DNA from: a virus
Taxonomy: Duplodnaviria; Caudoviricetes
Virus record (IMG/VR): IMGVR_UViG_2840949845_000002
Span: 22,434-86,433 of that record
Length of the DNA: 64,000 nt
Direction: 5' to 3' (one strand)
Both the position numbers and the translations under genes were made by a program. Positions 3,733 through 33,791 of the stretch are shown here, one piece after another. The notes under the pieces were generated by a model that worked only from the letters and a program-made list of their open reading frames with translations, was not told where the DNA came from and did not search any database. Position 1 is the first letter of the stretch. Each line of letters starts with the position of its first letter.

Positions 3733-4392
3733 TCAGGCGTTGGCCAGATCGAGCGTGATCGCTCGCCATGGCGATTCTTGGGAATCACGGCGGTAAAAGC
3801 GGACGTAGGTCTTGGTCCCCTCGACGCGGATGCTGTCGGAAATCGCGTCCATCGCCTGGCGCCACCGATCATCCGTGATGTCGACCCGACGCAACGCGAA
3901 GATTTTCTCCCGCGACACCTGCCCCTCTTTGTCGACGGAAAAGGCGTGATCCACCAGAACGCGGATGTTCGCGTTCACCCCCTGGCTCCAATCGCCGATG
4001 CATTCGTCAATCAAACCCTTGGCGATTTGCAGTTGCGGGCCGAACGTCATGTGATCCGCGACGGCAACCTGCACCTTGAGCTTTCCGTCCAGGCTCGTGA
4101 AGGTCATGTTTCCTTTTTTGCCGCCGCGCTTCGCTTTGTACTGATCCGTCAAAATCGCCAGGAAAGCGCCCACCTCGCTGAACACCGTCGATTTGAACGC
4201 GGCGATCAATCCCGACAGGGAATCCGCCTGATTCAGCAGATCGCGGACCAACTGGTCTTCCAGAAGATCCTGCGCTTTCACCAGCCGCGCCGGAATCATC
4301 CGGCCCCGCGCATCCTCGTAATAATCGGGGCGCGCCACCTCCGGCGTTACACCGACCTTGACGGTTTCCAATTGTGGAGCCGACTGAGACAT
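3733..4392 (-). CDS. DUF3164 family protein
   Basis: GGKKGNMTFTSLDG...LQIAKGLIDEC...W..AMDAI.DS...KTYVRFY...ITLDLA signature. Confidence 0.8.
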   Translation of the reverse strand: MSQSAPQLETVKVGVTPEVARPDYYEDARGRMIPARLVKAQDLLEDQLVRDLLNQADSLSGLIAAFKSTVFSEVGAFLAILTDQYKAKRGGKKGNMTFTSLDGKLKVQVAVADHMTFGPQLQIAKGLIDECIGDWSQGVNANIRVLVDHAFSVDKEGQVSREKIFALRRVDITDDRWRQAMDAISDSIRVEGTKTYVRFYRRDSQESPWRAITLDLANA

Positions 4393-6895: not shown

Positions 6896-6942
6896 TTATT
6901 TTGAGTCATCCTGACGAACCCTGTCAGTCCACGGAGGACGCC

Positions 6943-7269
6943 GTGTGCGAACCGCAATCGCCACCGGCGCGGCCCGGCGCATCGGGCGCGGCCCGGCGCA
7001 TCGGGCGCGACGGCTTCCCGTTCGCCAAGGCGGGGGTGATCCTGTCCGGCCTGCTGCCGGTGGCGAATCGGCAACCCGATCTGCTGAACGCCGCCGACCG
7101 GCAACGCGGCGCCCGGCTGATGGCGGCGCTCGACACCATCAACCAGCGGATGGGGCGGGACACGCTGGCGCCCGCCGCCACCATGGGCCGGGCGTGGCGC
7201 ATGCGGCAGGAACAGCGGTCGCCCAGCTACACCACCAAACTGGACGATGTGCCGGTGGCGCGCGCCTGA
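6943..7269 (+). pseudogene. umuC: UmuC / Y-family Pol V C-terminal fragment (DUF4113)
   Basis: FAKAGVILSGL...QPDLL...LMAALDTINQRMGRDTL...WRMRQEQRSPSYTT; polymerase core missing; GGAGG RBS before GTG 6943. Confidence 0.75.
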
Positions 7270-7459: not shown

Positions 7460-9805
7460 ATGATGGGAAGTATTGTTGGTTCTGTCTGGCGTGAACTTCG
7501 GGACCACCGGCGCAAAAACAAAGATATTATGGCGCTTTCTAGTGGATTTGGCTATAATGTATGCCGCCTATTCACCAACAAAAATTGGGTAGTACTGCCA
7601 ATTAATTTCATGCTTTATACTATTATTTCTTGCATTGCTTCAGTCTATATACCGCTTTCTCTGGAGGAGTCACAGGCTGGAACCGTCAAGGACATTGCCA
7701 GCTACATAATTTCCGCGCAGGTAACTTTGGTTGCACTTGCGATCCCAGTCATTATAGCCGGTGCTCAATTGCTGCTGAGCGCGCGGTCGGTCAAAGGGCG
7801 TGAATTCGATCTTGCTATTTTGCTTGATATTGGCAGGCCGCGTGAGATCACATCAAGCTCTCTTTTGCTCACTGCCGTGATGTTTTCTCTATTTTCATGG
7901 CCGCATGAAATCATCGCTGGTCCGATGCTAAGTGGTGCTCGTCCATATATTCTCGCTATTGCGGGGATCTGGTTTCTGGCTAACTTGGCTGGTTATGTGC
8001 ATTTCATCCATACCGCCCTTGATCTGGTCTCAAACGAGGGCCGCATCCGGCTGCGCAAGAGGGCAATTGCTTGGTTCGGATTCGATGAGGAAATAGGCGA
8101 CAATCGTCTTAGGGACCTCTGGTATGAGTTCCGCCAGGAACTTGAAGCGAGTGGTCTCGCCGGGACCTGGACCGTCGGGTGGGTGCCTCCCCTTAACGAG
8201 TCGTGGTTCGGATTTGCGCGCGCAGGTCGGATAAACGACGTCCGAACGACGGTTTTACGGATCGCGCTGCGCTGGCTTCGCTTCCGTAACGGTGACAAAT
8301 CGACGGTGGTGGGGATTGCCTTTTATTTAGGGAGTGACTGCAAGTCTGGCCAACATTTCCTCGTAGACAAGCGCCCGGATTTAATTGGTAGAATCTTACT
8401 GCGTTCATCCTTGAAAATCGGCGGGAGGGCGTCGTTTGGAAAGTCACGCTTTCGCCCAAGCGCGTTGCTGGAGGCTCTTGGGTCAGACGTGGAACATCAA
8501 ATTCTTACTGGGACCCCTGCGGACGCTGATGCGGCGTTCAGCGAATTATTGGATATGCTGCATGTACTGTTGCGGGCGTCGATGACCACGAATGGAAACT
8601 ATGCAACGAAAAATCCGATGATGTCATTGCTGAGGAATTGGGTTGATCCGGTCCATTCCTTAAGTTGGGTCGCGGCAGGCGCTCTGCAAAAATCACCGGA
8701 ATTTGCCTCTAACATCGCGGTGAAGCTGGCTCAAGCTTGTCGGCACGCGGTTACGGATAGATTCCCCCCTGAGATTGTTCGCGTCTTCGCGGAGGCGATA
8801 GGATTGCTGCTGTATCGCGTCTCTCGCCGCTCACATGAAGAAGGAAAAATTGAATCAATCGCACACCGCGAGTTCGTGAAACGGGGGGAGTGGGCGCTTG
8901 GATACCCACTGAACGCACTTTACCACGGGGCTGAATTTGACGATCCGTGGCGGGCTTTTCAACAGAGCGCCGAGACTCGGCTAATATTTGTTGGATTTCT
9001 GGCTTCCAACGTGAGCTATGTCGCATGGGTTAATGATTTGTACGCAGCAAGAAGCTATTTAACAGTATTTGCAAATTATTCTAAAGATATTGATGCATCA
9101 CGAGCGCCAATCGAATGGCGACGCATGCCCGATGATTTGTGGAAAAAGGACAGGGCGGAGGCCCGCACTATTTTGAGTGAATATGGCTCTGAGGACACGG
9201 CCATGGCTAATTGGCGGCGACAGGTATTGATAGATCGCTTGTTGCTGGCGCAGTTGGTTTGGGCGCAATGGATCGCTGAAGGCGCGCGCACGGATGATGA
9301 GTGGATAAAGCTCGTAACACGTCTTTCCAAAATTATTCGAGGTGATAAATATAGTATTTTTCGATATTTTCTCTCATTCGGTCATATCTTTCGCCGCTTC
9401 GTCGCTATGTGTGAAACAACCGACCAAGACGATCACGAGACTATCAATGAATTTGTGAGCAGTATCGACCGTGTGCGTGATTCCGATAAAGAGGGATTTT
9501 TTTATAGTGATGCTGTTCATCGAATAAAGGACCTTGTGCCTGGGTTAATCATACATGCCCTTGTCACCTTCGACGCGCAAGGGATGCAAGGAGCTGTGAA
9601 CGAAATCACGGAGGCCAAAAACTCTGGTATGATTGACGGCCAGAAAGCAAAAGAAATTTTCGATAGTCTTCATAGCATTTCTTGCGATCTGCCGAAGGGG
9701 ATCGTGGAAACGCTCAGCCCACATTTCTCCGATTGGACGGAGCGACTCGCGGCGCTTCAAGTATCTCTTCTTGCATGTAGAAGGATTTTTGACAGTGATC
9801 GTTGA
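7460..9805 (+). CDS. Large hypothetical membrane protein (moron)
   Basis: 781 aa, about 4 N-terminal TM segments, AT-richer than its flanks, opposite strand to the surrounding phage genes. Confidence 0.75.
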   Translation: MMGSIVGSVWRELRDHRRKNKDIMALSSGFGYNVCRLFTNKNWVVLPINFMLYTIISCIASVYIPLSLEESQAGTVKDIASYIISAQVTLVALAIPVIIAGAQLLLSARSVKGREFDLAILLDIGRPREITSSSLLLTAVMFSLFSWPHEIIAGPMLSGARPYILAIAGIWFLANLAGYVHFIHTALDLVSNEGRIRLRKRAIAWFGFDEEIGDNRLRDLWYEFRQELEASGLAGTWTVGWVPPLNESWFGFARAGRINDVRTTVLRIALRWLRFRNGDKSTVVGIAFYLGSDCKSGQHFLVDKRPDLIGRILLRSSLKIGGRASFGKSRFRPSALLEALGSDVEHQILTGTPADADAAFSELLDMLHVLLRASMTTNGNYATKNPMMSLLRNWVDPVHSLSWVAAGALQKSPEFASNIAVKLAQACRHAVTDRFPPEIVRVFAEAIGLLLYRVSRRSHEEGKIESIAHREFVKRGEWALGYPLNALYHGAEFDDPWRAFQQSAETRLIFVGFLASNVSYVAWVNDLYAARSYLTVFANYSKDIDASRAPIEWRRMPDDLWKKDRAEARTILSEYGSEDTAMANWRRQVLIDRLLLAQLVWAQWIAEGARTDDEWIKLVTRLSKIIRGDKYSIFRYFLSFGHIFRRFVAMCETTDQDDHETINEFVSSIDRVRDSDKEGFFYSDAVHRIKDLVPGLIIHALVTFDAQGMQGAVNEITEAKNSGMIDGQKAKEIFDSLHSISCDLPKGIVETLSPHFSDWTERLAALQVSLLACRRIFDSDR

Positions 9806-10006
9806 TGGAGTCACAGGGAACGGCAACGTTGGGGCATAGACCGTCAATTTTGGGGTGATTCGGTCTGTCAGCCCCCTACAGGCAACAACTGTCCACCAAA
9901 ACCGGATGGGTTCGTCCAATCGTCGGGACAAGAGTGCTTCAGCGGCCTCTACCGTGGGCTGGCGGTGGGATGGTCGCCGCGCCCACGGTTGGGGGTGGTG
10001 GGGTGG

Positions 10007-10819
10007 TTATTCGGTTTCTCGGTCGGGGCGGAAGGCCTTTTGCATCGCGATGGTGGCGTCGAGGATGCGCAGGCCGATGGTTCGGTCGATTTCTCTGGCG
10101 ACCAGGGTGCGCATGGTCTTGATGACGCGCAGGTCGGAATTGGTCAGGGGGCTGGACAGCAGGGGGTTGGGGTCCAGGTCGGTGTCGATGCCGCGACGCC
10201 AGAAATCCGCCGCCTTGCACGCGGCGCAGAAAGGCGGGTTGCGGGTTTCGGGGATTGAGTTCGCGCCGATCGGCGGCGTCAGCAGCGCGCGCAGCCGGAT
10301 CTGGTCGTCGCGTCCCAAGCTGCGGTAGGCCATGACCATCGATTCTTCCTCGGGCGCCAGCGTGCCGGGCAATCCGGTGGTTCTGGCGCCGGTCGCGGCG
10401 TCGAACACTTCGACCATCTGGATCGTCACCAACGCGGAGCGTTCGGTGTCCGACTTCGCCGTGATGTAGAGCGCTTGCTTTTTGGTGAGGTGGAAGGCGC
10501 CTTTGCTCGGGCGTCCACGTCGGCGGGGAAACTCCGCCGTGCGGCGGAGTTTCCGATCAGCGTCGGAAATAGGTTCATCTGGAGTGTGCGGCGCCTGCCG
10601 CGAACTGCGATTTTCCGGGACATCCCGGAAAACCTCTCCGAAGGTCATGAGCGCGGCCATGTGGCGTTCGATCAACCGACGAATATCATGAGGGTCCACC
10701 ATCCCCAACGCTTCGGCAAGCCGGAGGTCGCGGATGCGCGGCTCGTGATTGATCGTGGTGTCGATGTCGGTCGGTGATAACGCGGGCAAGGCTTGCCCGT
10801 TGTCGCCCATGATGTTCAT
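10007..10819 (-). CDS. Rha-like antirepressor/regulatory protein, copy 1
   Basis: EPRIRDLRLAEALG...IRRLIERH...GRP...HLTKKQALYITAKSDT; AGGAGG RBS; lies downstream of a C4-like RNA. Confidence 0.7.
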   Translation of the reverse strand: MNIMGDNGQALPALSPTDIDTTINHEPRIRDLRLAEALGMVDPHDIRRLIERHMAALMTFGEVFRDVPENRSSRQAPHTPDEPISDADRKLRRTAEFPRRRGRPSKGAFHLTKKQALYITAKSDTERSALVTIQMVEVFDAATGARTTGLPGTLAPEEESMVMAYRSLGRDDQIRLRALLTPPIGANSIPETRNPPFCAACKAADFWRRGIDTDLDPNPLLSSPLTNSDLRVIKTMRTLVAREIDRTIGLRILDATIAMQKAFRPDRETE

Positions 10820-10878
10820 GGCGATGGCCTCCTGTGCGGCATTGCCGACGGAGGGCTGCTTTCTAGGACAACCCTGGC

Positions 10879-10953
10879 GCCGGGGGCTAGAAACCTGTCA
10901 CAGGTCAGGCCGGACTATTCCCCTTGCGGGTCTTGTATTATCCGACCCCCGGC
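10879..10953 (-). ncRNA. C4-type antisense RNA, copy 1 (seeds CCUGUG and UUUCUAG)
   Basis: 75 nt closed by GCCGGGGG/CCCCCGGC, CCC-GCAA-GGG hairpin, GGCCUG-loop-CAGGUU stem; complementary targets at 11027-11046, 10859-10867 and 10831-10836. Confidence 0.8.
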
Positions 10954-11026
10954 AAAGGGGTATGCACCGGACGGACTCCGGGCACGAAAATGGCCGCATC
11001 GCGAAAAACGCGCGGACGGCCTGCCG

Positions 11027-11086
11027 CCTGTAAGGAGGTTTCTAAGCTCCGGGGCGAAGAATGGCTCCGCTGGGCGGCAGGGTCAA
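11027..11086 (-). promoter_or_regulatory. Promoter (-35 TTGACC) and upstream C4 target pair of cassette 1
   Basis: TTGACC at 11086-11081; targets TTAGAAAC and TTACAGG downstream on the - strand. Confidence 0.6.
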
Positions 11087-11329
11087 GGGCGTCCCGTCAA
11101 CGCGGCGTGGACTCGCGTGTATTTCTGTGAAAGAACGCAACCAATCTTTCCGGTCCTTGCACCTGGGCCAGTCGGACCGACGCGGCGAGTCAGCGCTGCG
11201 CCGGCTGGGCAACTGTCGCCCTCTGATACGGTCGCGCAACGCGGAGAAGGGGCCACCGGCGGCCGGAAAGACCATCGTTCGCGTGGCGATGGGGTGATCG
11301 CGACACCCCGCCGCGATTGCGCGCCCGGC

Positions 11330-12100
11330 TCATGCCCCCAGCGAGGCGTTGTGCAGGGCGATGACGTGACGAACGATGTCGGCGGCGGCGGGATCATGGG
11401 GCACCACCACCAGCAGCGTCAGCGCCGTGCCGGTTCCCCAATCGACCAGGATGGCCCCCGGATCGCTGGCGGCGTTGGACCAGGGGCGGTTGATCGCCGC
11501 CTGGACGCCAACCGGCTTGGGCGGCTCCACGCTGGGCGGCGGCGGCGACTCGGCGTCGATGAGCGGCGGCGGCAGGGCGGGACCGTCCGCGTTCGGCCAG
11601 ATCGCGGCGCCGGTTGGCCGCTGGGGCGGCGGTTCGGCCCCGGAAAACAGATCGGCCGGACGCGGCCCGGCAGCCGGTTCAGGCTTGGGCGCCTTGAACG
11701 CCTCCACCTCCGCGCGGGTCACGTCGGGGCGGATCACGCCCTGCGCGACCGCCTCCTCGCGCACCTCCTCAGGCAGGGTGGCTATGACGTAGAGCGTGCT
11801 GTAGGCCTCCGGCAACTGGTCCAGCGGCACCTTCCCCGCATCGACGAATTCCGCCACCTCGCGCAGCTTGCGCGCGGTGGACGGGCCGAACGGCAGGTCG
11901 GCCTGCACCATCGCCTCATACTCGCCGTGGGGCAGAGCGGCTTTCGCCTCGTTCAGCCGTCGGCCCACCTGCACGGTGGATTCCAGGGCGTTGGTCCATT
12001 CGCGGCGGATGTCGGCCACGAACTCCGCGCGGCTGGTCAGCGCGCGCGGCGCGTTCAGCATCGAAAGCCGGGTGTTCCCCAAACGGCGGGCGTTGGTCAT
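11330..12100 (-). CDS. DUF3102-like DNA-binding protein (possible ParA partner)
   Basis: VGRRLNEAKAALPHGEYEAMVQADLPFGPSTARKL motif; starts 1 nt after the parA stop. Confidence 0.65.
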   Translation of the reverse strand: MTNARRLGNTRLSMLNAPRALTSRAEFVADIRREWTNALESTVQVGRRLNEAKAALPHGEYEAMVQADLPFGPSTARKLREVAEFVDAGKVPLDQLPEAYSTLYVIATLPEEVREEAVAQGVIRPDVTRAEVEAFKAPKPEPAAGPRPADLFSGAEPPPQRPTGAAIWPNADGPALPPPLIDAESPPPPSVEPPKPVGVQAAINRPWSNAASDPGAILVDWGTGTALTLLVVVPHDPAAADIVRHVIALHNASLGA

Positions 12101-12101
12101 G

Positions 12102-12722
12102 TCAGATCCCCATCTCTTCGGCCAAATAGGCCCACAGGTCGCGGAACAAGGGGCCGGTGCGGGTTCCGGCGATCTCCGCCGTTCCCAGCCCGGCGGTGAA
12201 GCTGCGCGGCACCTCCTGAAGCTGGGGGATCATGACCGGGGCCAGAGTCCCCATCCTCCCCACGATCTCCCGCGCGTCCACGGTCTCGCGCAGGCGCGGC
12301 TGGATCTGGCTCAACAGCAACCGAATCGGGCGACGCCGGGCGCGCAGATAGGGGAGCATCGCGTCCATGCTGACCAGATCCTCCGGGCCGGGGCGCACGG
12401 GGGCCAGCACCAGATCGGCGGAGTCGAACAGGATCGCCGTCGGGCCGGGGAAGACCTCAATCGCCGTCGGCGTGTCGATCACCAGCAGATCCAGCCCGTC
12501 GGGCGTCGGGGCGCGGTCGATCGCCGACAACAATCGGTGTTCATGCGCGATCACCACCGCGTCGCCGGGCCGCTGGCCATGCCAGAAGGTCAGCGACCCT
12601 TGCGGATCCGTGTCCAGAGTTCCCACCCGCAGCCCTGCCACCGCCGCCGCCACCGCCAGATTCCGCGCCGTCGCCGTTTTCGGCCCGCCGCCCTTGCCCT
12701 GAACCACCAGGATGGTTTTCAT
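12102..12722 (-). CDS. parA: ParA family ATPase (short ParF type)
   Basis: QGKGGGPKT deviant Walker A, LDTDPQGSL, LLVIDTP, ADLVLAP. Confidence 0.85.
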   Translation of the reverse strand: MKTILVVQGKGGGPKTATARNLAVAAAVAGLRVGTLDTDPQGSLTFWHGQRPGDAVVIAHEHRLLSAIDRAPTPDGLDLLVIDTPTAIEVFPGPTAILFDSADLVLAPVRPGPEDLVSMDAMLPYLRARRRPIRLLLSQIQPRLRETVDAREIVGRMGTLAPVMIPQLQEVPRSFTAGLGTAEIAGTRTGPLFRDLWAYLAEEMGI

Positions 12723-12846
12723 CGCCGCGCCCCCCGCCGGAAACCGTTCACCGGGGAACGATTCCCCGCCCCCACCGGGCGCGCGCCGTCGCGCGTCCGG
12801 CCCATTGATCCATCGAATGGCATCTCTCGCGCTCCAAAGGCTGGAA

Positions 12847-13632
12847 TCAGTGGGACGTGAAGTGCGGAGCGCCCGCGCGCCATTGCGTGGTCTTGACCGA
12901 CAGGATTTCGCCGATCTGGTCGCGCACATCCGCCTTGCCGGTGACGTCCCACAATTCCGCCATCACCCGGTTGATCTCGACCATCAACTCCGTCGCCCGT
13001 TCCAACGCGATCTGGACGTCCACCGGCAGAGCCAGAAAGCCGGGCGCCCAGGTCGGCGGGGAGAGTCTCGACCGGATTTGCGGCCGCGCCGTCAGTTGGG
13101 GACGGCGCCGCCCCCCTTGGATGACGGGTTGGATCGGCTGGCCCCGCCGCAGCGCGTCGAGGGCGGCGCCGGTCAGCGTGTTGCGGACCCGCGTTTCCTC
13201 CAGCGCGGCGGCCATGCGGGCGCGCTCGTCGATCCGATCCAGGTCGGCCTTGGTCAGCGCCGGGACGGGCGGCGGCGACGCCCGACCGCTGGTCACGGTG
13301 TCGAACACCTCGACGATCTGGATCGTGATCTCGGTCGCCCGTTCCGTCTCGGCCTTGGTCGCGATGTAGATCGCCTGTTTCTTCGTCAGCCAGAATTCGG
13401 CGGCGGGGCGCCCGCGTCCGGGATTTTTCCGCACGGTGCGGAAAATTCCGCCAAGCCGCTCCAGCGCCTCTCGGTGGCGCTCAATCAGCGGGCGGATATC
13501 AGCGGAACGCTTGAAACCCAGCGCTTCGGCCAAGCGCAGATCCAGAATGCGCGGCTCGCCGTTGATGGTGGTGTCGATGTCGGACTGTGATAATCCGGGC
13601 AAAGCTTGCCCGTTGTCGCCCATGCTGTTCAT
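12847..13632 (-). CDS. Rha-like antirepressor/regulatory protein, copy 2
   Basis: N-terminal domain closely similar to copy 1 (MNSMGDNGQALPGLS...EPRILDLRLAEALG...WLTKKQAIYIATKAET); unrelated C-terminus. Confidence 0.7.
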   Translation of the reverse strand: MNSMGDNGQALPGLSQSDIDTTINGEPRILDLRLAEALGFKRSADIRPLIERHREALERLGGIFRTVRKNPGRGRPAAEFWLTKKQAIYIATKAETERATEITIQIVEVFDTVTSGRASPPPVPALTKADLDRIDERARMAAALEETRVRNTLTGAALDALRRGQPIQPVIQGGRRRPQLTARPQIRSRLSPPTWAPGFLALPVDVQIALERATELMVEINRVMAELWDVTGKADVRDQIGEILSVKTTQWRAGAPHFTSH

Positions 13633-13691
13633 GGCGATAGCCCCCTTGTCGGCATTGCCGGCGGAGGGCCGCTTGTCACGACGACCCTGGC

Positions 13692-13766
13692 GCCGGGGGC
13701 TGACAACCTGACAAGGACAGGCCGGACTATTTCCCTTGCGGGTGTTGCATTCATCCGTCCCCCGGC
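13692..13766 (-). ncRNA. C4-type antisense RNA, copy 2 (seeds CCUUGU and UUGUCAG)
   Basis: Same 75 nt scaffold as copy 1; targets at 13841-13860, 13673-13679 and 13644-13650; TTGACG -35 at 13902-13897. Confidence 0.8.
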
Positions 13767-13997
13767 ATAGGGGCATGCGCCGGACAGAATCCGGGCATGA
13801 AAATAGCCGCATCGCGAAAAAACGCGCGGGCGGCTTGCCGCCTTGTCATGGAGTTGTCAGGCTCCGGGGGGAAGAGTCGCTCCGTTGGGTGGGCCGCGTC
13901 AAGGGGCGCAGTGTTGCATTTTCCGCGAACGGTGCGCGGAAATTCCGGCAAACCGTTCCAAATCTCCTGCTGCAGTATTTACACGAGAAAAGCGCTT

Positions 13998-16223
13998 TCA
14001 AAGACGAACAGGAATATCAATAACCGGCGCAAGTTGCTCAAGTGTAGTTCTGTAACGGCGCACCACCTGATCGTAGATGTCTGGCACTCGTGGAGCTTTT
14101 ACAGTTACGATAAGTGCATACCTCAGCTTTTCGGCGGGCCTAAAATCTTGTCCGCCTGCTCGAGCGTTATAGTGGATATCAAAAACAGGATCTTTCAAGC
14201 TCTTTCCTCGGAATGACTGGGTATGATGCAAACAGTTATCCCACTTGTGTGCGTCGCGACGTAGTTCATCCTCAGTGGCATAGAGCTTGCCCTGCTTAAA
14301 GAAGCTTGTTGTTTTAGGGTGTATGGATTCCCCATCAATCTTATCTTTATTTGGTCGGAATAATACCTCAAGTCCTGCTCTTGTATAGTTGCTTGGGTGA
14401 TGTGGATCTACAGTGGATGCGTAGCAAATCGTTGCTGATATCTCAACCATTCCACTTAATTGATCGGCTGGGACAGGAATTTGAGCTCTGATGTATTTGG
14501 ATGCGCTTATTTCACCCTGGTAAACAACCCGAACCACGCCGGGAGCGCACACAACAATTTCCTCAAGATCCCGAGCTACGCGTCCCCAGCCAACTTCCGT
14601 ACGTGGATAGCCGCTCGGGGTGCTCGTATGAACAAGCAGTGCATTGATCGCCAACCCTCGGAGAGAATCGCCAAAGTGAGCCCTGATGCCCATCCCCATG
14701 CGCATTGTGTCTGGAGCGGCAAAGCTTGTCCCACCGGTCGGCATGAGTGTTGGGACTGAGCCAGGCCCCAGCACCAGATAGGGCTCGGCTATAGAACCAC
14801 CGAAGCTGACGAGCGAGGGCTTGACTCGACCAGGGCTTCTTCCTGGACCTATTGAACTGTAGGGTGCCCTTTTCCATGCAGAACTGCGAGAATCAGCAGC
14901 GCCAATTGATAATGCATTGACACAATCAGCTGGAACTTGAATGCGGTTGTAACCGTTATCCGCGTCGCGCTCTCCTCCATTTCCTACCGCGATAGTCGCC
15001 AGGGTTTCACCATCTGATAGGTATTCATCAAGAACTGCTGTCCACGCGTGGATCTCATCATCCTCGACTGGCAACTCTGGGCCGATACTAAAGTTGATAA
15101 AATCATAACGCTTACTTGCGAGTGCATCTTGAATACGCTGCAATGTTTCATAAAGCTCCAACGGATTTTGGTTCAGATCTCCGTCAAGAACTCTGTAGTG
15201 ATCAACTCGTGCATACGGAAGGGGTAAAGGAAGTCCAGGCGTAATATGGCCGAAAAGAGCTGCCGATGTCACATTAAGCCCGTGCTCAAGATAGTCGTCT
15301 TCAGCTGGACCAATGCCACTCGGTTCGATAGCTGTTGCCCAAGCAGAAACTGGATGATCATGAGGCAGTCCACCATCAAAGATGGCCGCCTTGATAGAAG
15401 GATCAATAGGCGGTCCTTTGGGCAATGCAATTGACGGCGTAGATGGGATTGACGACGAACGGAAAGGTGGTCGTAACAGCCGAAGCTTTGGCATTTCTCT
15501 AACCGCCCGAACAAAGCTATAGGCTGCTAGATATTCTGCTTGCTTGCGAGAAGCGCTGACAGGGACAAAGCTCACGCCCGACGATGTGATTCTATGATCA
15601 AGGTCTGGCTTAAATCCTAACCCGTGAACGTAATCAACAAAACCCTCTAGGACGAAAGAATCGACCATTGATCCGCCACCATGCAGGGCCACTTCAAAGA
15701 CAATTTCTTCCGATTCCGATGTAATACTCTTCAGTTTTTCGGCAGGTTCTGGTGCCGACAACTGTTCGATGGCGGTTAGTTCGTCAGCTCCCGACGATCC
15801 AGCCCACCAATCCGGGATTGACGTCGACCAGTCACGAAACGCTCGTCGAGATCCCGCGACGAAGAGCTCCGTCGTAAGAGCTTCCTCCGGTTCCCGGCCC
15901 TTGCTGCGCGCTGCTGGGAGTATTCTACGAGGACGACTTCCAACGGCTCGAAGGCCGACCGCTGTCAAGAGCTTGCCGGGAAAATAAGATTTCGCAATGT
16001 ATTCTGGATGCAAGGTCATCCGCATAACAGCATGATCATGCGGACAAGCTTTCTCTGGTAGCGCATCAAGGCTCCTAACCGCTGCCGATAACATTGGCGT
16101 AAGGCGCGACTGCGCTTGAAAGAACGTGTATGGGGCCTGTTTATCAGGATTTCCTGTGCGAACGATTACTGGCTCCGTTAATCGCTCACCCTTGCCCAGC
16201 AGAAAGTTTCTCTTGTTCGACAT
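13998..16223 (-). CDS. ietS: S8 (subtilisin-like) serine protease, IetS-like
   Basis: Catalytic triad motifs IFDGG, EHGLNV, GGTSFAAP; oxyanion motif AVGNGG; directly downstream of an AAA ATPase. Confidence 0.8.
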   Translation of the reverse strand: MSNKRNFLLGKGERLTEPVIVRTGNPDKQAPYTFFQAQSRLTPMLSAAVRSLDALPEKACPHDHAVMRMTLHPEYIAKSYFPGKLLTAVGLRAVGSRPRRILPAARSKGREPEEALTTELFVAGSRRAFRDWSTSIPDWWAGSSGADELTAIEQLSAPEPAEKLKSITSESEEIVFEVALHGGGSMVDSFVLEGFVDYVHGLGFKPDLDHRITSSGVSFVPVSASRKQAEYLAAYSFVRAVREMPKLRLLRPPFRSSSIPSTPSIALPKGPPIDPSIKAAIFDGGLPHDHPVSAWATAIEPSGIGPAEDDYLEHGLNVTSAALFGHITPGLPLPLPYARVDHYRVLDGDLNQNPLELYETLQRIQDALASKRYDFINFSIGPELPVEDDEIHAWTAVLDEYLSDGETLATIAVGNGGERDADNGYNRIQVPADCVNALSIGAADSRSSAWKRAPYSSIGPGRSPGRVKPSLVSFGGSIAEPYLVLGPGSVPTLMPTGGTSFAAPDTMRMGMGIRAHFGDSLRGLAINALLVHTSTPSGYPRTEVGWGRVARDLEEIVVCAPGVVRVVYQGEISASKYIRAQIPVPADQLSGMVEISATICYASTVDPHHPSNYTRAGLEVLFRPNKDKIDGESIHPKTTSFFKQGKLYATEDELRRDAHKWDNCLHHTQSFRGKSLKDPVFDIHYNARAGGQDFRPAEKLRYALIVTVKAPRVPDIYDQVVRRYRTTLEQLAPVIDIPVRL

Positions 16224-16226
16224 GTT

Positions 16227-17345
16227 TTAATCCTCAAATTTATCATGCGTTCTGCATGCGTTCCTGATGGTATCTCTGCTGATCCCCGTAAGCTCAGACA
16301 CTTGCCGTTGTGATAAGATATCTCCAAGAACCATTTCTGAAGCAATTGCCAGTCTATTAGGTTTGTCGATTTCCATTATTCGTTCTCGGAGAATTTGTTG
16401 CAGATGAATTGATAGAGGTTGCTCACTTAGCGCTGCTGCCCTTCTGGCCGCATTTACCCGTCTCTCTACGTCACTGAAAGACAGCCCATGGAAAACTATA
16501 GACATCGCTCGCACCCAATGATTTGACTTTTCAACGTGCTCAGTTAATAGGGCGTCGAGAAGAGCCTGAAGACCAGATATATCTGGCATCGGAAAATCAA
16601 CCACAATTTCAAATCGACGCCAAACGGCAGGATCTAGCAATCCAGCATGATTTGTTGCTGCAATTAGCAAACCTGTTGGCGGCCAGTCATCAATTTCTTG
16701 AAGAAGAACAGTTACAAGACGCTTTAGCTCTCCAATTTCACTTCCATCATCCCGTCTTTTTGCAATTGCATCCAGTTCATCCAAAAGAAGAACGCAATCT
16801 ATTTTCTTTGCATAATCAAGAACGTTGCGGATGTTGTTCCCTGTGCGCCCCAGGTAACTACTCATTACAGCGGCCAGATCAAGAACAAGCAGCGGCCGCC
16901 CCATTTCATGAGCAAGCCAGCGGGCTGATAGCGTTTTTCCCACACCCGGAGGGCCTGTGAAAAGCACGGTACGTGTTGGGTTGAGCCCCACAGCGGCAAG
17001 GCGGTCGGAATTGAGACGCTCAAGCATTAATTGGCTCAATCGCTCCTTGATCTGAGGGGCAAGAACCGGCGGATGATCAATGCCTGTGACCGTCTCTACT
17101 CGGAGAAGCTCCAGTCGAGAGTCCACATCGACTGGGAGAGGTTGCTCTGCCTGCCGACGGAGAGGGGAGGACCTCGTCGGCGCCTCGCGCAACAGCGATG
17201 TTAAGCCATCCCCGAGTTCAGGAACCTGTTGCCCGTACTTCTTTGCAGCACGATGGATGAAGAGTTGCACATCCTGCTGGCGCCCTGAGAGCGCCAAGCG
17301 GGAAAGGCGGACGAAATCAGACGAAATTTCCTTTTGGAAGTCCAC
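16227..17345 (-). CDS. ietA: AAA+ ATPase, IetA-like
   Basis: GPPGVGKT, LLLDELDAIAKRR, AATNH, LDPAVWRRF; 3 nt from the S8 protease; GTG start inferred. Confidence 0.85.
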   Translation of the reverse strand: MDFQKEISSDFVRLSRLALSGRQQDVQLFIHRAAKKYGQQVPELGDGLTSLLREAPTRSSPLRRQAEQPLPVDVDSRLELLRVETVTGIDHPPVLAPQIKERLSQLMLERLNSDRLAAVGLNPTRTVLFTGPPGVGKTLSARWLAHEMGRPLLVLDLAAVMSSYLGRTGNNIRNVLDYAKKIDCVLLLDELDAIAKRRDDGSEIGELKRLVTVLLQEIDDWPPTGLLIAATNHAGLLDPAVWRRFEIVVDFPMPDISGLQALLDALLTEHVEKSNHWVRAMSIVFHGLSFSDVERRVNAARRAAALSEQPLSIHLQQILRERIMEIDKPNRLAIASEMVLGDILSQRQVSELTGISRDTIRNACRTHDKFED

Positions 17346-17499
17346 TTCACACCGGCATATGAGGAAAACAGGAACGAAATGAGTATGGCGGGATGGACTA
17401 AAATTCGCAACATGTTTTGGTATGTCGTCCATTTCACCGGGCGATGCCGCGCGGTGCGCGGCGGCACGTCCAGATCCAGCCCAAGCTGCGCCGCGCCCC

Positions 17500-17751
17500 T
17501 CACGGCCCGCCCTCATCGCGCCGGTCCACCGGCGTCGTCAACCGCATCTCGCCCAGCGCCTGGGCCGCGAATCGCTTCACCTCGCTGCTGAAGGTGTAGC
17601 CGGGGGTCTGGCCGACATGGCCCGGCGGCGCGCAGGACGGGCGCAGGAAATCCCACAGCACGAACACCCGGTCGCATCGCAAAACCCGGCGGATGCTGTC
17701 GGGGAAGCGATAGACGCCGTTTTCCCAAATATCATCAGGGCTTAGGGGCAT
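17500..17751 (-). CDS. Small phage hypothetical protein
   Basis: 83 aa ORF coupled to the replication initiator. Confidence 0.5.
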   Translation of the reverse strand: MPLSPDDIWENGVYRFPDSIRRVLRCDRVFVLWDFLRPSCAPPGHVGQTPGYTFSSEVKRFAAQALGEMRLTTPVDRRDEGGP

Positions 17752-17754
17752 CGG

Positions 17755-18561
17755 TCAGGCCCTCGTTTCGGGGTGGGACCACAGGGAGGCTTGGCCGGAC
17801 AACCGGGTTTCGACTCGAACCTCGACGTTGCGGATCCGTGGCAGCTTGGCCAAATCGTCGGAAAACCGCTGGCGAATCTGATCGGCGACGAAGCGGCTGG
17901 GGGCGGCGATGAGCAGAAGCTGGTTGCCTGTGACCGACACCCGGCAATCACGGAACCACTGGCCGTGTCGGTGGCCGCCGATCCGCTGCGCGATCAGGCC
18001 GTGCAGATCGCGCTCGGTCTCGTCGGGCTGTCCGGCGCTCACGCGCTCACGCGCAAGGGCGCGCGTGGGTTCACGGGTTATATCACAGGGTTTGGGCGAC
18101 TCCGGCGTCGGGCAAAAATCCCGCGTTTTGTCGCCCAAAGCCGAAGGGTCTGTCGCCAAATCCGGGCTTTCCCCGACTCCCCGGTCGGCGACGCCGGTGT
18201 CGGCGAAAGCATCGCCCGGACCAGCGTCCAGCGCCTCCTCCCGCTCCAGCCAATCCAGGCGAAAGCGCATCCGCGTCGCCTGCCCTCGTCCGCCCGGACG
18301 ATCCCGCTCGATCACGCCGCTGGCCAGCAGGGCGGCGCGCGCCCGCTCCACGTCGCGGGTGGACAAGGCCGAGTCCTGAGCCACGGTTTCGACGCTGGCC
18401 CAGGTCAGCAGATCGCCCAGGCCGCGCCACATCTCGCGGTTCACACGGCCCAGCATGACCAGGGCGACCACCTTGTCGCGTGGCTTCAGCGCGGAACTGG
18501 AAAGCACGGCGTCACGGAAGCGGCCCACGATTTCCCGAAAGTCACAGAGTTTTGCGGTCAT
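17755..18561 (-). CDS. Replication initiator: N-terminal HTH plus C-terminal DnaA_N-like domain
   Basis: TWASVETVAQDSALSTRDVERARAALLASGVI (wHTH); QWFRDC...IAAPSRFVADQIRQRF resembles DnaA domain I. Confidence 0.7.
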   Translation of the reverse strand: MTAKLCDFREIVGRFRDAVLSSSALKPRDKVVALVMLGRVNREMWRGLGDLLTWASVETVAQDSALSTRDVERARAALLASGVIERDRPGGRGQATRMRFRLDWLEREEALDAGPGDAFADTGVADRGVGESPDLATDPSALGDKTRDFCPTPESPKPCDITREPTRALARERVSAGQPDETERDLHGLIAQRIGGHRHGQWFRDCRVSVTGNQLLLIAAPSRFVADQIRQRFSDDLAKLPRIRNVEVRVETRLSGQASLWSHPETRA

Positions 18562-22191: not shown

Positions 22192-22527
22192 ATGGATAGG
22201 CGCGACGAGACGGATTGGCATCATTCCCCCAACGGCAGCACGCCGTCCCACCGACTCAGCCTCTTCAACCAGCGGCGTGCGTCCATTGAGGCGCAATTCG
22301 CCATGGGCGCGATCGGCATCGCCAAGCGGCGCGATCTTCTGATCGCCGCGCGCGACGACGCTGGGATCACGGGCATGCGGACCAACGCCAAACCGACGGT
22401 TCCGCTGGGGTTGGGAGCGAGCGAGGAGAGTGAGCGGCGGCGGCGGCGGCGGGCGGACCAACGTCGGTACGCCCGCAAGCAGGCCAGTGATGCCGTTGCG
22501 CCGATGGAGGTGGGCAACCATGGCTGA
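22192..22527 (+). CDS. Arg-rich early hypothetical protein (N-like position)
   Basis: First ORF after OL; contains ERRRRRRADQRR. Confidence 0.45.
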   Translation: MDRRDETDWHHSPNGSTPSHRLSLFNQRRASIEAQFAMGAIGIAKRRDLLIAARDDAGITGMRTNAKPTVPLGLGASEESERRRRRRADQRRYARKQASDAVAPMEVGNHG

Positions 22528-23468: not shown

Positions 23469-23732
23469 GTGGCAGCTAAGGTTTCGGATCTCGTTGGGCT
23501 TCCAAACTGGCCACGCATGCTCAGCCGCGATCAGGCCGCACGCTATGTCGGCGTCTCGCCAGTGCAGTTCGACCGCGAGGTTTCGACGGGCCGCTGGCCA
23601 ACGCCAGAGCGGCGCGGCAGCCGAGTCACATGGGATCGCCGACTGATCGACAGGGCGCAAGACAAGAACAGCGGCATCGTGGCAAGCTCGGAGTCGTCGG
23701 CGCACGAGCCGACGGTTGATCCGTGGGCGTGA
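23469..23732 (+). CDS. Excisionase / AlpA-like HTH
   Basis: WPRMLSRDQAARYVGVS..FDREV..GRWPTP...VTWDRRLID; directly upstream of int. Confidence 0.7.
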   Translation: MAAKVSDLVGLPNWPRMLSRDQAARYVGVSPVQFDREVSTGRWPTPERRGSRVTWDRRLIDRAQDKNSGIVASSESSAHEPTVDPWA

Positions 23733-24919
23733 CCGTGGGCAAGATTGAGGTTGATCTACCGCGCTACGTCATAGCCAAGCGTCGCGGCGACCGCTTGGCC
23801 TTCTATTTCCAGGTCCCGAAGCGCCTTCAGCCCGAGGGCTGGCCATCGGGCGCCATGCGGCTGAAGGACAGCCAAGGCGTCGCCATCGAGGAGCCAGCCG
23901 AGGCCATCAGACGTGGACGCGAGCTGAACGAGATGCTGAACCGGGCGCGCGCGCAGGTGGCCGCAGGCCCGATCCAGGGCACTTTGCCGTGGCTGATTTC
24001 CGAATACCAGCACTCGGACAAGTACCGGAACCGCGCCGAACAGACGCGCTACCAGTACGACCTGATCGCGCGGATGATGATTGCGTGGTCAAAGGAGAAG
24101 AACCACCCGCAAGTCGGGCAGATGACGGTCCCGTCGGCTTTGAAGTTCCTCGACCAGTTCGAGGACCGACCGACCTACCGGATTCGTGCCGCCGCCTTCG
24201 GATCGGTCCTCTGGAATTTCGGTCGCCGACTGGGTGTGGTGTCCGTCAACGTGTGGAAGGACCTCGACCTGGAGGCGCCGGATCCGGATGTCCATATCTG
24301 GTCCGACGAGGAGATCGCCGCCGTCGTCGCCAAGGCCGACGAGATGGCCCGCGCCAGCGTCGGCACCGCCGTGATGCTGGCCTCCGAATCCGGCCAACGG
24401 CAAGCCGACGTCCTCGACATGCGCCGTGGCCGGGAATGGGACGGCGTCACCCTCCGCCGCGTCCAGAACAAGACCAAGGCGTATGTGACGGTGCCGGCAA
24501 CCAAGCTCCTCCTTGATCGGCTCGCCAGCCTCTCGAAGGACAACCTCCTCCTCGTGGCCTCCGAAACGACCCGGCGGCAGTGGCGCCAGCAGACATTCAG
24601 CCGGACCTTCCGCGAGATCGCTGACGCCGCTGGCTTCCCCCAGATCGAATTCCGGTCCCTGCGGGCCACCTGCGTGTGCCGCCTCGCGTCGGCCGGGTGC
24701 TCGATTCCGGAAATAGCCAGCATCACCGGCCACACGCTGGTGTCCGTGCATCACATCCTGAAGCACTATTGGCGACCCGACAGCGACCAAGCCAGGAATG
24801 CGATTTCCAAGGTCGAAGCGTTCCGGCTGTACCCAGTCACTTGGACTTGGAGAGAGGTGGGATTGGGTGGGATCTGCGGGGATGTCGTGGGACGCGTTGA
24901 AAATCGGGCGTTTTCCTGA
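23723..24919 (+). CDS. int: Phage integrase (tyrosine recombinase); last ~30 codons come from the inserted Mu-like end
   Basis: SGQRQAD, QNKT, RSLRAT, ITGH, KHY catalytic motifs; the sequence after ...ISKVEAFR (24827) does not look like integrase. Confidence 0.85.
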   Translation: MGVTVGKIEVDLPRYVIAKRRGDRLAFYFQVPKRLQPEGWPSGAMRLKDSQGVAIEEPAEAIRRGRELNEMLNRARAQVAAGPIQGTLPWLISEYQHSDKYRNRAEQTRYQYDLIARMMIAWSKEKNHPQVGQMTVPSALKFLDQFEDRPTYRIRAAAFGSVLWNFGRRLGVVSVNVWKDLDLEAPDPDVHIWSDEEIAAVVAKADEMARASVGTAVMLASESGQRQADVLDMRRGREWDGVTLRRVQNKTKAYVTVPATKLLLDRLASLSKDNLLLVASETTRRQWRQQTFSRTFREIADAAGFPQIEFRSLRATCVCRLASAGCSIPEIASITGHTLVSVHHILKHYWRPDSDQARNAISKVEAFRLYPVTWTWREVGLGGICGDVVGRVENRAFS

Positions 24920-32978: not shown

Positions 32979-33791
32979 ATGCCCGATCAATCACCCGTTT
33001 TTCCGTTCCAGGCACCGCTCATCCCGCTGCCGTCGGGCGCGCCGACGCTGGCCAAGCACCTGCACGCGATGTTGAGCATCGTCCGCCGCCACGCCCCCCT
33101 TGCGGGCATGCTGTCCGAGCAGGAGATCGCCGCCACCGACGCCGCCTTTGCGGCGCTGGTCGGGTTGCCCGCCGCCAAGGCCAGCGTGGAGGTGTTGAAT
33201 AGCAAGGTGTACTGGCGCGACGAAGACGAGAATTTGACGCTGGAGAGCATGGTCAAGCCCCATCGCTTTTTGGAGGATGACTTCGTCCGCACCGTCGCCA
33301 CCGCCGCCCTGTCGACGTCCATGACCCTGGCGCGGCTCAAAGCGCTCTCGTTCGCCGAAGCGCAGGCGCTGATCGACACCCTGGCGTCGGCTCATGGCGT
33401 CAAAGCGGGCGGCAGGGCCGGAAACGTCTCCTTCGTCAGTTACGACCGAGCCTTCAAGGTCCAGATCGCCGTTCAGGAGCGTCTGGCCGTGAACGCCAAC
33501 ATCGTGACGGCCAAGACGGCGCTGAACGAATGGTTGGCCGCCGCCGACGCGGGGGACGAAGTCCGCGCCCTCATCAACGCGGCGTTCGGGTTGGGCGATC
33601 AGGACGGGGTCCGTGTCGCCGAGTTGGTGCGGCTCAAGCGTCTGGTCATCAACCATCCGCTGTGGAACGCGGCCATGGCCGCGATTGATGACGCGTTGGA
33701 GGTGGCGGGCAAGGCCCAATACCTGAGGGTCTACCAGCGCGCGCCGGACGGCAAATACGTCCAAATCCCGCTCGATCTGGCCAGCGTGTGA
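32979..33791 (+). CDS. DUF3164 family protein with N-terminal extension
   Basis: GGRAGNVSFVSYD..KVQIAVQE...W.AAMAAIDDAL...YLRVYQR...IPLDLA. Confidence 0.8.
   Translation: MPDQSPVFPFQAPLIPLPSGAPTLAKHLHAMLSIVRRHAPLAGMLSEQEIAATDAAFAALVGLPAAKASVEVLNSKVYWRDEDENLTLESMVKPHRFLEDDFVRTVATAALSTSMTLARLKALSFAEAQALIDTLASAHGVKAGGRAGNVSFVSYDRAFKVQIAVQERLAVNANIVTAKTALNEWLAAADAGDEVRALINAAFGLGDQDGVRVAELVRLKRLVINHPLWNAAMAAIDDALEVAGKAQYLRVYQRAPDGKYVQIPLDLASV

Follow-up and report, generated by a model that had tools for sequence, protein, structure and literature searches.

Two c4-type antisense RNA locks with non-matching specificities predicted on the sRNA-Xcc1 scaffold in one Azospirillum prophage

A 64,000-nt stretch of viral DNA (Duplodnaviria; Caudoviricetes; IMG/VR record IMGVR_UViG_2840949845_000002, positions 22,434 to 86,433), hereafter called the window, carries two diverged repeat units, each with a small RNA followed directly by a gene for a Rha-like protein. 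We found that both RNAs belong to the family sRNA-Xcc1 (Rfam RF02221) and that each is flanked on both sides by short sites complementary to two of its exposed parts. Judged from the sequence, each cassette very probably represents an antisense RNA lock of the type known from c4 of the phages P1 and P7, built on the sRNA-Xcc1 scaffold, and the specificities of the two locks do not match each other. The c4 design itself is known; what is new is its presence on the sRNA-Xcc1 scaffold, twice in one prophage and with non-matching specificities.

Both repeat units and all their features are located on the minus strand, and coordinates are those of the window unless another locus is named. In the 5' to 3' direction, each unit consists of a CTTGAC box, a site for the junction seed of the RNA, a site for its loop seed, a terminator-like hairpin and its U tract, another hairpin, the 79-nt RNA, both sites again, and the open reading frame (ORF) of the Rha-like protein. 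The first 6-7-nt motif of each unit lies in the loop of a small GGAG/CUCC hairpin and the second upstream motif six bases past it; the downstream copy of the first motif is found 8-9 nt past the RNA, while that of the second is fused to the Shine-Dalgarno sequence. All upstream and downstream sites are within approximately 130 nt of the RNA. The features of cassette 1 are:

11082..11087, minus strand: -35-like CTTGAC box of a putative promoter, from the sequence
11039..11045, minus strand: upstream junction-seed target TTAGAAA (six Watson-Crick pairs and one G-U pair with UUUCUAG)
11027..11032, minus strand: upstream loop-seed target TACAGG (five Watson-Crick pairs and one G-U pair with CCUGUG)
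10875..10953, minus strand: RNA1, 79 nt including RCCA, from the RF02221 match (70.3 bits) and the fold
10887-10893, minus strand: junction seed UUUCUAG of RNA1
10899-10904, minus strand: loop seed CCUGUG of RNA1
10860..10866, minus strand: downstream proximal junction-seed target CTAGAAA (perfect 7-nt complement, 8 nt past the RNA)
10831..10836, minus strand: downstream distal loop-seed target CACAGG (perfect 6-nt complement), running into the Shine-Dalgarno sequence AGGAGG at 10828-10833 (jointly 10828..10836)
10007..10819, minus strand: Rha-like gene 1, 270 aa, with its ATG at 10819, 8 nt past AGGAGG

The features of cassette 2 are:

13898..13903, minus strand: -35-like CTTGAC box of a putative promoter, from the sequence
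13854..13860, minus strand: upstream junction-seed target CTGACAA in the loop of the GGAG/CUCC hairpin (perfect 7-nt complement of UUGUCAG)
13841..13847, minus strand: upstream loop-seed target GACAAGG (7-nt complement of CCUUGUC)
13808..13826, minus strand: inner part of the terminator-like hairpin, with the U tract after it, situated between the RNA and the upstream sites, from a terminator scan
13688..13766, minus strand: RNA2, 79 nt including RCCA, with closing stem, hairpin A and hairpin B, from the RF02221 match (55.0 bits) and the fold
13700-13706, minus strand: junction seed UUGUCAG of RNA2
13710-13716, minus strand: loop seed CCUUGUC of RNA2, in hairpin B
13673..13678, minus strand: downstream proximal junction-seed target TGACAA (6-nt complement, 9 nt past the RNA)
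13644..13650, minus strand: downstream distal loop-seed target GACAAGG (7-nt complement), overlapping the Shine-Dalgarno sequence AAGGGGG (jointly 13641-13650)
12847..13632, minus strand: Rha-like gene 2, 261 aa, with its ATG at 13632, 11 nt past the distal site

The units are direct repeats of each other over segments of 197 nt (82% identity), 69 nt (88%), 49 nt (73%) and 103 nt (74%), with a spacing of 2813-2900 nt (about 2.8 kb). The initial annotation of this DNA had already described two diverged repeat units with seeds and targets and had placed the last target over the Shine-Dalgarno sequence. Every seed and target it listed was found at its position, and the overlaps (CACAGG with AGGAGG and GACAAGG with GGGGG) are seen in both cassettes.

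A scan of the whole window against Rfam at curated thresholds gave exactly two matches, both to RF02221 (curated cut-off 53 bits), at 10871-10953 with 70.3 bits and at 13684-13766 with 55.0 bits, each covering model positions 1-87 of 87. The minimum-free-energy folds of RNA1 (-35.2 kcal/mol) and RNA2 (-33.3 kcal/mol) both reproduce the structure of the model, namely a closing stem of 8-9 bp, hairpin A, which contains an internal loop, hairpin B and a single strand of 6-7 nt, followed by G-CCA. Thus, both RNAs resemble sRNA-Xcc1 of Xanthomonas campestris in exceeding the cut-off over the full model. They differ from sRNA-Xcc1 as it is described in the available parts of the literature by their c4-style flanking targets, which are present here and in most of 45 other copies of the family. 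The family is described upstream of symE in Xanthomonas integrons (PMC12444791) and elsewhere upstream of ORF6N genes, in both cases with the mechanism left unexplained in the sections consulted. No c4-type reading of sRNA-Xcc1 was found in the literature searched, which did not include the 2011 paper naming the family, and where C4 and sRNA-Xcc1 are mentioned in the same paper, the parts consulted treat the two as distinct RNAs.

Three positions of the loop seed and three of the junction seed differ between RNA1 and RNA2, and all eight target sites have changed to match. The longest contiguous matches of the RNA1 seeds to their own four sites are 5, 6, 6 and 7 nt, as opposed to 3, 3, 2 and 2 nt for the sites of cassette 2; for the RNA2 seeds they are 7, 7, 7 and 6 nt at their own sites and 3, 4, 2 and 2 nt at those of cassette 1. 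The energy of the RNA2 loop duplex is -12.2 kcal/mol with its own site and -7.3 kcal/mol with that of the other cassette. Since the seeds differ and all eight targets follow, the two locks should neither open nor close each other, and we infer that the two specificities are orthogonal. Two more RF02221 copies are located elsewhere on the same contig (L002 and L003); their seeds differ again and their flanking sites follow. For c4 of P1 and P7, specificity is reported to be set by few seed bases (PMC5320573, PMC12197685), and four changed bases separate the specificities of the two phages (PMC5320573).

The heptamer UUGUCAG occurs twice in RNA2, as the junction seed and spanning the loop and the 3' stem of hairpin B. 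Because of this doubling, and because the RNA2 targets share GACAA, either seed of RNA2 could pair with either site.

Joint change of seeds and targets was analyzed in relatives of the two cassettes. A search with RF02221 gave matches in 28 of 130 genomes of the same bacterial family, above the cut-off in 18. The alignment comprised 21 complete close cassettes from Azospirillum (19 distinct sequences), with a twenty-second, L044, left out as it is without the upstream part. When the seeds and the downstream sites were treated as helices, 94.9% of the cells were paired and the covariation score was 0.219, compared to 0.069 in shuffles (reached in none of 500) and at most 0.059 in controls with a slid downstream partner. 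For the seeds and the upstream sites, 98.1% of the cells were paired with a score of 0.247, compared to 0.080 in shuffles (again reached in none of 500); since the sequences are kin, these shuffle statistics exaggerate independence. More weight can be put on the slid controls and on the number of distinct pair types than on the shuffle counts. Changes on both sides of a pair are confined to the seed-target helices (five of six loop pairs and three of seven junction pairs, with as many as four types of pair at a position), and the 20 scaffold pairs show no two-sided change, and thus no covariation, across the 21 cassettes. This bears out, in a larger set, the earlier proposal of a constant scaffold with seeds and targets that change together.

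Across the 21 cassettes, 11 different loop seeds are combined with 8 different junction seeds in 17 ways, each with four sites to match. The combined upstream and downstream match of the loop seed has a mean of 13.2 nt for cognate and 6.4 nt for non-cognate pairs, of which 5 of 386 reach the lowest cognate value. These data also bear on the idea that the short motifs are operators of a DNA-binding protein and that the RNA-like fold plays no part. Short repeats close to a promoter or a ribosome-binding site are indeed what operators typically look like, but each motif here is the reverse complement of one of the two exposed parts of an RNA structure shared at family level, and changes together with that part, with up to four pair types per position. 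An operator model predicts none of this, and we regard it as hardly credible.

The terminator-like hairpin of the leader is also conserved: its outer stem covaries from GC to AU in 8 of the 19 distinct sequences and is paired in 100% of them. A candidate antiterminator hairpin (GGCGGC/GCCGCC) competing with this terminator was rejected, as one of its pairs is broken in 8 of the 19 distinct sequences with no compensating change.

Beyond the close relatives, RF02221 was detected in 40 of 151 sampled Pseudomonadota genomes, in 25 of them above the cut-off. A model was built from 25 sequences, and 45 further copies were aligned from 48 sources (29 loci of the phylum sample, 18 loci of the same bacterial family, and P1). 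Both upstream sites have a match of at least 6 nt in 36 of these 45 copies, the downstream loop site in 35 and the downstream junction site in 25, while the same seeds reach at least 6 nt in the flanks of other loci in 9-14% (the non-cognate rate). In 29 of the 35 loci that have this downstream loop site, an ATG opening an ORF of at least 40 codons lies 0-12 nt past it. The guarded ORFs in these 29 loci comprise 5 Rha proteins, 3 Bro-N proteins (2 of them with a P22 antirepressor C-terminal domain), 4 RTX/M10 proteases and 17 proteins without a Pfam match.

The literature treats sRNA-Xcc1 as a trans-acting, virulence-linked small RNA in plant pathogens (PMC2996969, PMC12189769, as far as these sources are available to us). 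Applied to the two cassettes, this would mean that the RNAs are general trans-acting regulators of host genes elsewhere and that the flanking matches are incidental, which is very improbable in our opinion. All 21 close cassettes, and most of the distant copies, have seeds that match their own flanks at fixed positions. In the genome, two-site patterns occur 16 times against 32 for reversed-pattern controls and 10 times against 11, with the cassettes' own sites included among the matches. Additional trans targets in the genome were rejected as candidates, the patterns being no commoner than the reversed controls.

The design of c4 in P1 is the closest model for the cassettes described here. 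In the P1 record, the c4 promoter is followed by a1, b1, the 77-nt C4 RNA, a2 four bases past the RNA, and b2 just before icd, over its ribosome-binding site. In the Rfam alignment, P1 c4 has a closing stem, two hairpins, a loop complementary to b2 and a single strand complementary to a2, followed by ACC. The same searches as used here detected the P1 elements as positive controls (C4 with 68.8 bits and c4-a1b1 with 51 bits). Like P1 c4, the cassettes have the order promoter, two sites, terminator-like hairpin, RNA, proximal site and distal site on the ribosome-binding site. In both, the RNA has a single loop seed and a single junction seed and then NCC(A), and the loop seed pairs with the copy on the ribosome-binding site. 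Their upstream sites are ordered as a1 and b1, and their downstream proximal and distal sites are the equivalents of a2 and b2. P1 too has a terminator-like hairpin between a1/b1 and c4 (35.1 bits with the isrK model, cut-off 50). On the other hand, the closing stem has 17 pairs in P1 and 8-9 here, the first hairpin is larger here and contains an AUACAA/GAAUA internal loop, the guarded gene comes next with no icd-like leader ORF in between, the guarded protein is Rha-like while that of P1 is Ant, and there are two locks per prophage instead of one.

Three other systems share parts of this design. IsrK/STnc1160 of the Salmonella prophage Gifsy-1 resembles the cassettes in having a short terminator-ended leader with complementarity to a processed small RNA that follows closely downstream on the same transcript (PMC4825925). 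It differs from them in that the isrK model has no match here and in that an antiterminator-type protein and growth arrest are the outcome of the Gifsy-1 operon. The CI RNA of satellite P4 (seqA/seqB/seqC) is likewise an immunity RNA processed from the transcript that it controls, with complementary sites on both sides (PMC4825925). However, P4 CI is described as acting by transcription termination (PMC4825925), whereas the distal site on the ribosome-binding site points to translational control here. The group 1 C4-like RNAs of Acinetobacter baumannii are similar in that many copies of the scaffold per genome differ mainly in their seeds and are apparently processed from longer transcripts, but they match the Rfam C4 motif and were discussed as possibly retargeted to host genes, whereas targets in the own flanks are kept here (PMC5320573, in the portion consulted).

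On the basis of these comparisons, we propose the following mode of action. The transcript would start just upstream of the first hairpin and contain the upstream targets, the terminator-like hairpin, the RNA, the downstream targets and the Rha-like gene. Two short seeds of the RNA would be exposed: the loop of hairpin B holds one of them, and the single-stranded stretch ahead of the closing stem the other. By pairing with the two downstream sites, both seeds together would cover the ribosome-binding site, so that the Rha-like protein would not be made. Such a lock would act in the lysogen and on an incoming relative with the same seeds, the RNA presumably acting in trans. The RNA is probably cut out of the transcript, as the closing stem with RCCA imitates the acceptor end of a tRNA; this mimicry would fit processing by RNase P as in P1. 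P1 C4 is reported to be cut from a larger transcript by RNase P (PMC5320573), and cleavage of a model substrate by this enzyme depends on a 3'-terminal RCCA motif (PMC12710915). The upstream sites may serve as decoys or as a feedback point, as was discussed for IsrK and the processed STnc1160 RNA (PMC4825925). The guarded proteins are putative antirepressors.

The same arrangement could also work in cis only, as a translational leader from which the element is never released and in which the seeds pair either with the upstream sites, leaving the ribosome-binding site free, or with the downstream sites, blocking it, without any trans-acting immunity RNA. The strand that encodes the RNA also has both sets of sites, at distances of up to about 130 nt, and covariation looks the same for intramolecular and intermolecular pairing. 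Nevertheless, we consider a cis-only switch rather improbable. The closing stem is followed directly by RCCA in 21 of 21 close cassettes, which fits release by RNase P, the enzyme reported to process P1 C4 (PMC5320573). Moreover, sRNA-Xcc1 of Xanthomonas was seen as a discrete RNA of about 88-100 nt (PMC2996969, in the part available), and the terminator-like hairpin separates the upstream sites from the RNA.

Several results weigh against the proposed c4-type locks, some of them concerning the RNAs and others the guarded proteins. The initial annotation had named a match to the Rfam C4 and c4-target models as the check to be made, and this check failed. In a permissive scan of 9800-14200, neither RF01695 (C4) nor RF03163 (c4-a1b1) nor isrK had a match at E<=10, the RNAs being RF02221, a family that stands outside the C4 clan in Rfam. 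Our own covariance model of these RNAs (R1) also misses P1 c4 at E<=0.01. For these reasons homology with c4 is not demonstrated, and the likeness is one of design only. In the wider family, 10 of the 45 copies are without the downstream loop site, the downstream junction site is shorter or missing in 20 of 45, and NCCA is found past the stem in only 22 of 45. The specificity of RNA1 is less sharply set than that of RNA2: its loop duplex has -10.1 kcal/mol with the own site and -7.8 kcal/mol with the other, a gap of only about 2 kcal/mol. The junction seed of RNA1 is shared with cassette L002 of the same genome and its loop seed is one base off that of L003, so that some cross-talk within the genome is possible. 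The kinship of the aligned sequences, mentioned above, belongs here as well. As to the promoter proposed earlier, the -35-like CTTGAC box stood up, being conserved at the same distance in cassettes 1 and 2 and in the other two cassettes of the genome. The -10 region, in contrast, is poor (in cassette 1, CATTCT 17 nt past CTTGAC matches the consensus at 3 of 6 positions), and a consensus promoter scan called the promoter of neither cassette.

The products of genes 1 and 2 are 37% identical. In line with the earlier suggestion of a common N-terminal domain and differing C-terminal domains, the likeness is concentrated in the first 145 residues or so and the C-terminal parts are unlike; an insert of 28 residues is found in gene 1. 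Most homologues are unnamed proteins of Azospirillum, with 40-78% of the query covered, which agrees with a shared N-terminal domain and variable tails. With Pfam PF09669 (Phage_pRha), gene 1 scores 20.8 bits and gene 2 27.4 bits, both under the cut-off of 29.9; a precomputed table lists this domain for gene 2 and for many homologues. Gene 1 has no PHROG match. The predicted structure of gene 2 (mean pLDDT 78.2, pTM 0.49) has no match among solved structures at E<=0.001, the best being the Mbp1 DNA-binding domain with E 0.35. No repressor that could be the partner of the Rha-like proteins was recognised among 20 small ORFs in the window. In addition, at six loci found through protein relatives in six other genomes, related Rha-like genes have no RF02221 RNA upstream.

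Therefore, it has to be considered that the lock is real but that the Rha-like proteins are DNA-binding regulators, or proteins harmful to the host that are kept silent, and not antirepressors. The Pfam scores under the cut-off, the weak Mbp1 match and the missing target repressor in the window are compatible with this, and so are the RTX/M10 proteases guarded by other RF02221 copies (4 of 29 loci) and the position of symE beside RF02221 in Xanthomonas integrons (PMC12444791, as far as consulted). However, gene 2 matches PHROG 63 'anti-repressor Ant' (E 2.8e-9), and its predicted structure resembles models of viral proteins with the names regulatory protein, Bro-N, Rha family and antirepressor, with E<=0.001 for four of these models. 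Further, two genes guarded by RF02221 carry the P22 antirepressor C-terminal domain, and c4 of P1 guards an antirepressor. We see this alternative as possible but the less likely one, and antirepressor is a reasonable label for both proteins, judged by similarity.

Other genera of this bacterial family have weaker RF02221 copies (L031, L033, L046 and L048) that precede genes for RTX-repeat or M10 metalloprotease-like proteins of 470-490 aa, and in these copies the loop seed is complementary to the ribosome-binding region. Since RF02221 copies precede such protease-like genes, the lock would not be confined to phage regulators. In two relatives (L016 and L018), the Rha-like frame runs on into a ParA frame, giving 371 and 478 codons with a ParA C-terminus, which could be a fusion or a frameshift.

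Both cassettes are located in the early region of one myovirus-type prophage, as had been assumed when they were assigned to a single prophage. Its late genes lie just left of the window, where minus-strand genes for portal, protease, capsid, sheath, tube, baseplate, fibre and lysozyme are contiguous with the terminase gene at 3-1127. Right of the cassettes are a replication-type gene (17755-18561) and an integrase gene (23723-24919). Two genes lie between the cassettes:

12102..12722, minus strand: gene for a ParA-like ATPase (Pfam CbiA/AAA_31, PHROG 164 ParA-like), its position kept in L079 and L080
11330..12100, minus strand: DUF3102 gene (Pfam DUF3102, 36.6 bits), its start overlapping the ParA stop; partner of ParA kept in L079-L081

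In three other Azospirillum genomes (L079, L080 and L081), a cassette is again followed by ParA, DUF3102, variable cargo and a further cassette, in this order. There, the cargo between DUF3102 and the second cassette consists of GmrSD and a C5 (cytosine) methylase in one genome and of large TPR proteins in the remaining two. Upstream of the first cassette, L079 and L080 have Shedu-like (SduA_C) or AAA_21 genes, and a C5 methylase or an integrase lies past the second cassette in L079-L081. As the order recurs, the pair of cassettes is a conserved feature of a group of prophages, beside a cargo hotspot, and no recent private duplication. The duplication and divergence within this prophage that the initial annotation had suggested can thus not be upheld. 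The 17 seed combinations among 21 cassettes point to an old pair and an exchange of modules.

Directly upstream of cassette 2, the anti-phage pair IetA/IetS is encoded at 13998-17516 on the minus strand with a low GC content (48-51%); the PADLOC scores are 275 bits for IetA and 132 bits for IetS, below the NCBIfam cut-offs. Downstream of cassette 1 and convergent with it, a 781-codon ORF (7460-9805, plus strand) lies in a low-GC island (50-54%). It has no match in Pfam, NCBIfam or PADLOC and is possibly defence cargo of a new type.

A second RF02221/Rha-like pair of the genome (L005, G000:C1:368000-387999, 7835-15699) brackets a complete type II CRISPR-Cas locus, with the following features in the coordinates of L005:

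7835-7916 and 14730-14811, strand of the cassettes: the two RNAs
9062-12409, strand of the cassettes: Cas9
12413-13396, strand of the cassettes: Cas1, followed by a 148-codon ORF
13821-14515, strand of the cassettes: CRISPR array, 10.6 repeats with a period of 66

In another species (G020), the cut-down cassette L044 is found about 1 kb upstream of a cas9 gene that is 75% identical.

A c4-type lock would provide a mechanism for a catalogued RNA family and predicts the target of each copy straight from its sequence. The 21 Azospirillum cassettes represent a natural series of compensatory mutations and could guide the design of orthogonal translational repressors. It is tempting, though clearly speculative, to extend this to the whole sRNA-Xcc1 family, which would then be a second widespread scaffold of c4-type locks with a freely assorting two-part code made up of the loop seed and the junction seed. 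In Azospirillum prophages, two non-matching locks would guard antirepressor-like paralogues that frame a hotspot of defence cargo, in one case with a complete CRISPR-Cas9 locus directly downstream of the first guarded gene. In this still tentative extension, the locks would set a combinatorial code of heteroimmunity and may gate the downstream cargo. With two locks lying beside defence islands in one prophage, one may ask which repressors are the targets of the guarded proteins, and also whether the seed code separates self from non-self among related prophages.

Some further features of the window do not belong to the cassettes. A 122-codon ORF in the early region of the prophage (6901-7269, plus strand) matches only the C-terminal DUF4113 domain of Y-family polymerases and looks like a gene remnant. 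A separate Mu-like prophage occupies 25564-64000, with an HTH repressor-type gene and genes for a Ner-like wHTH protein, a MuA-type transposase, a MuB-like ATPase, Mom, portal, gpT capsid and tape measure proteins. DUF3164 genes are present in both prophages, at 3733-4392 and at 32979-33791.

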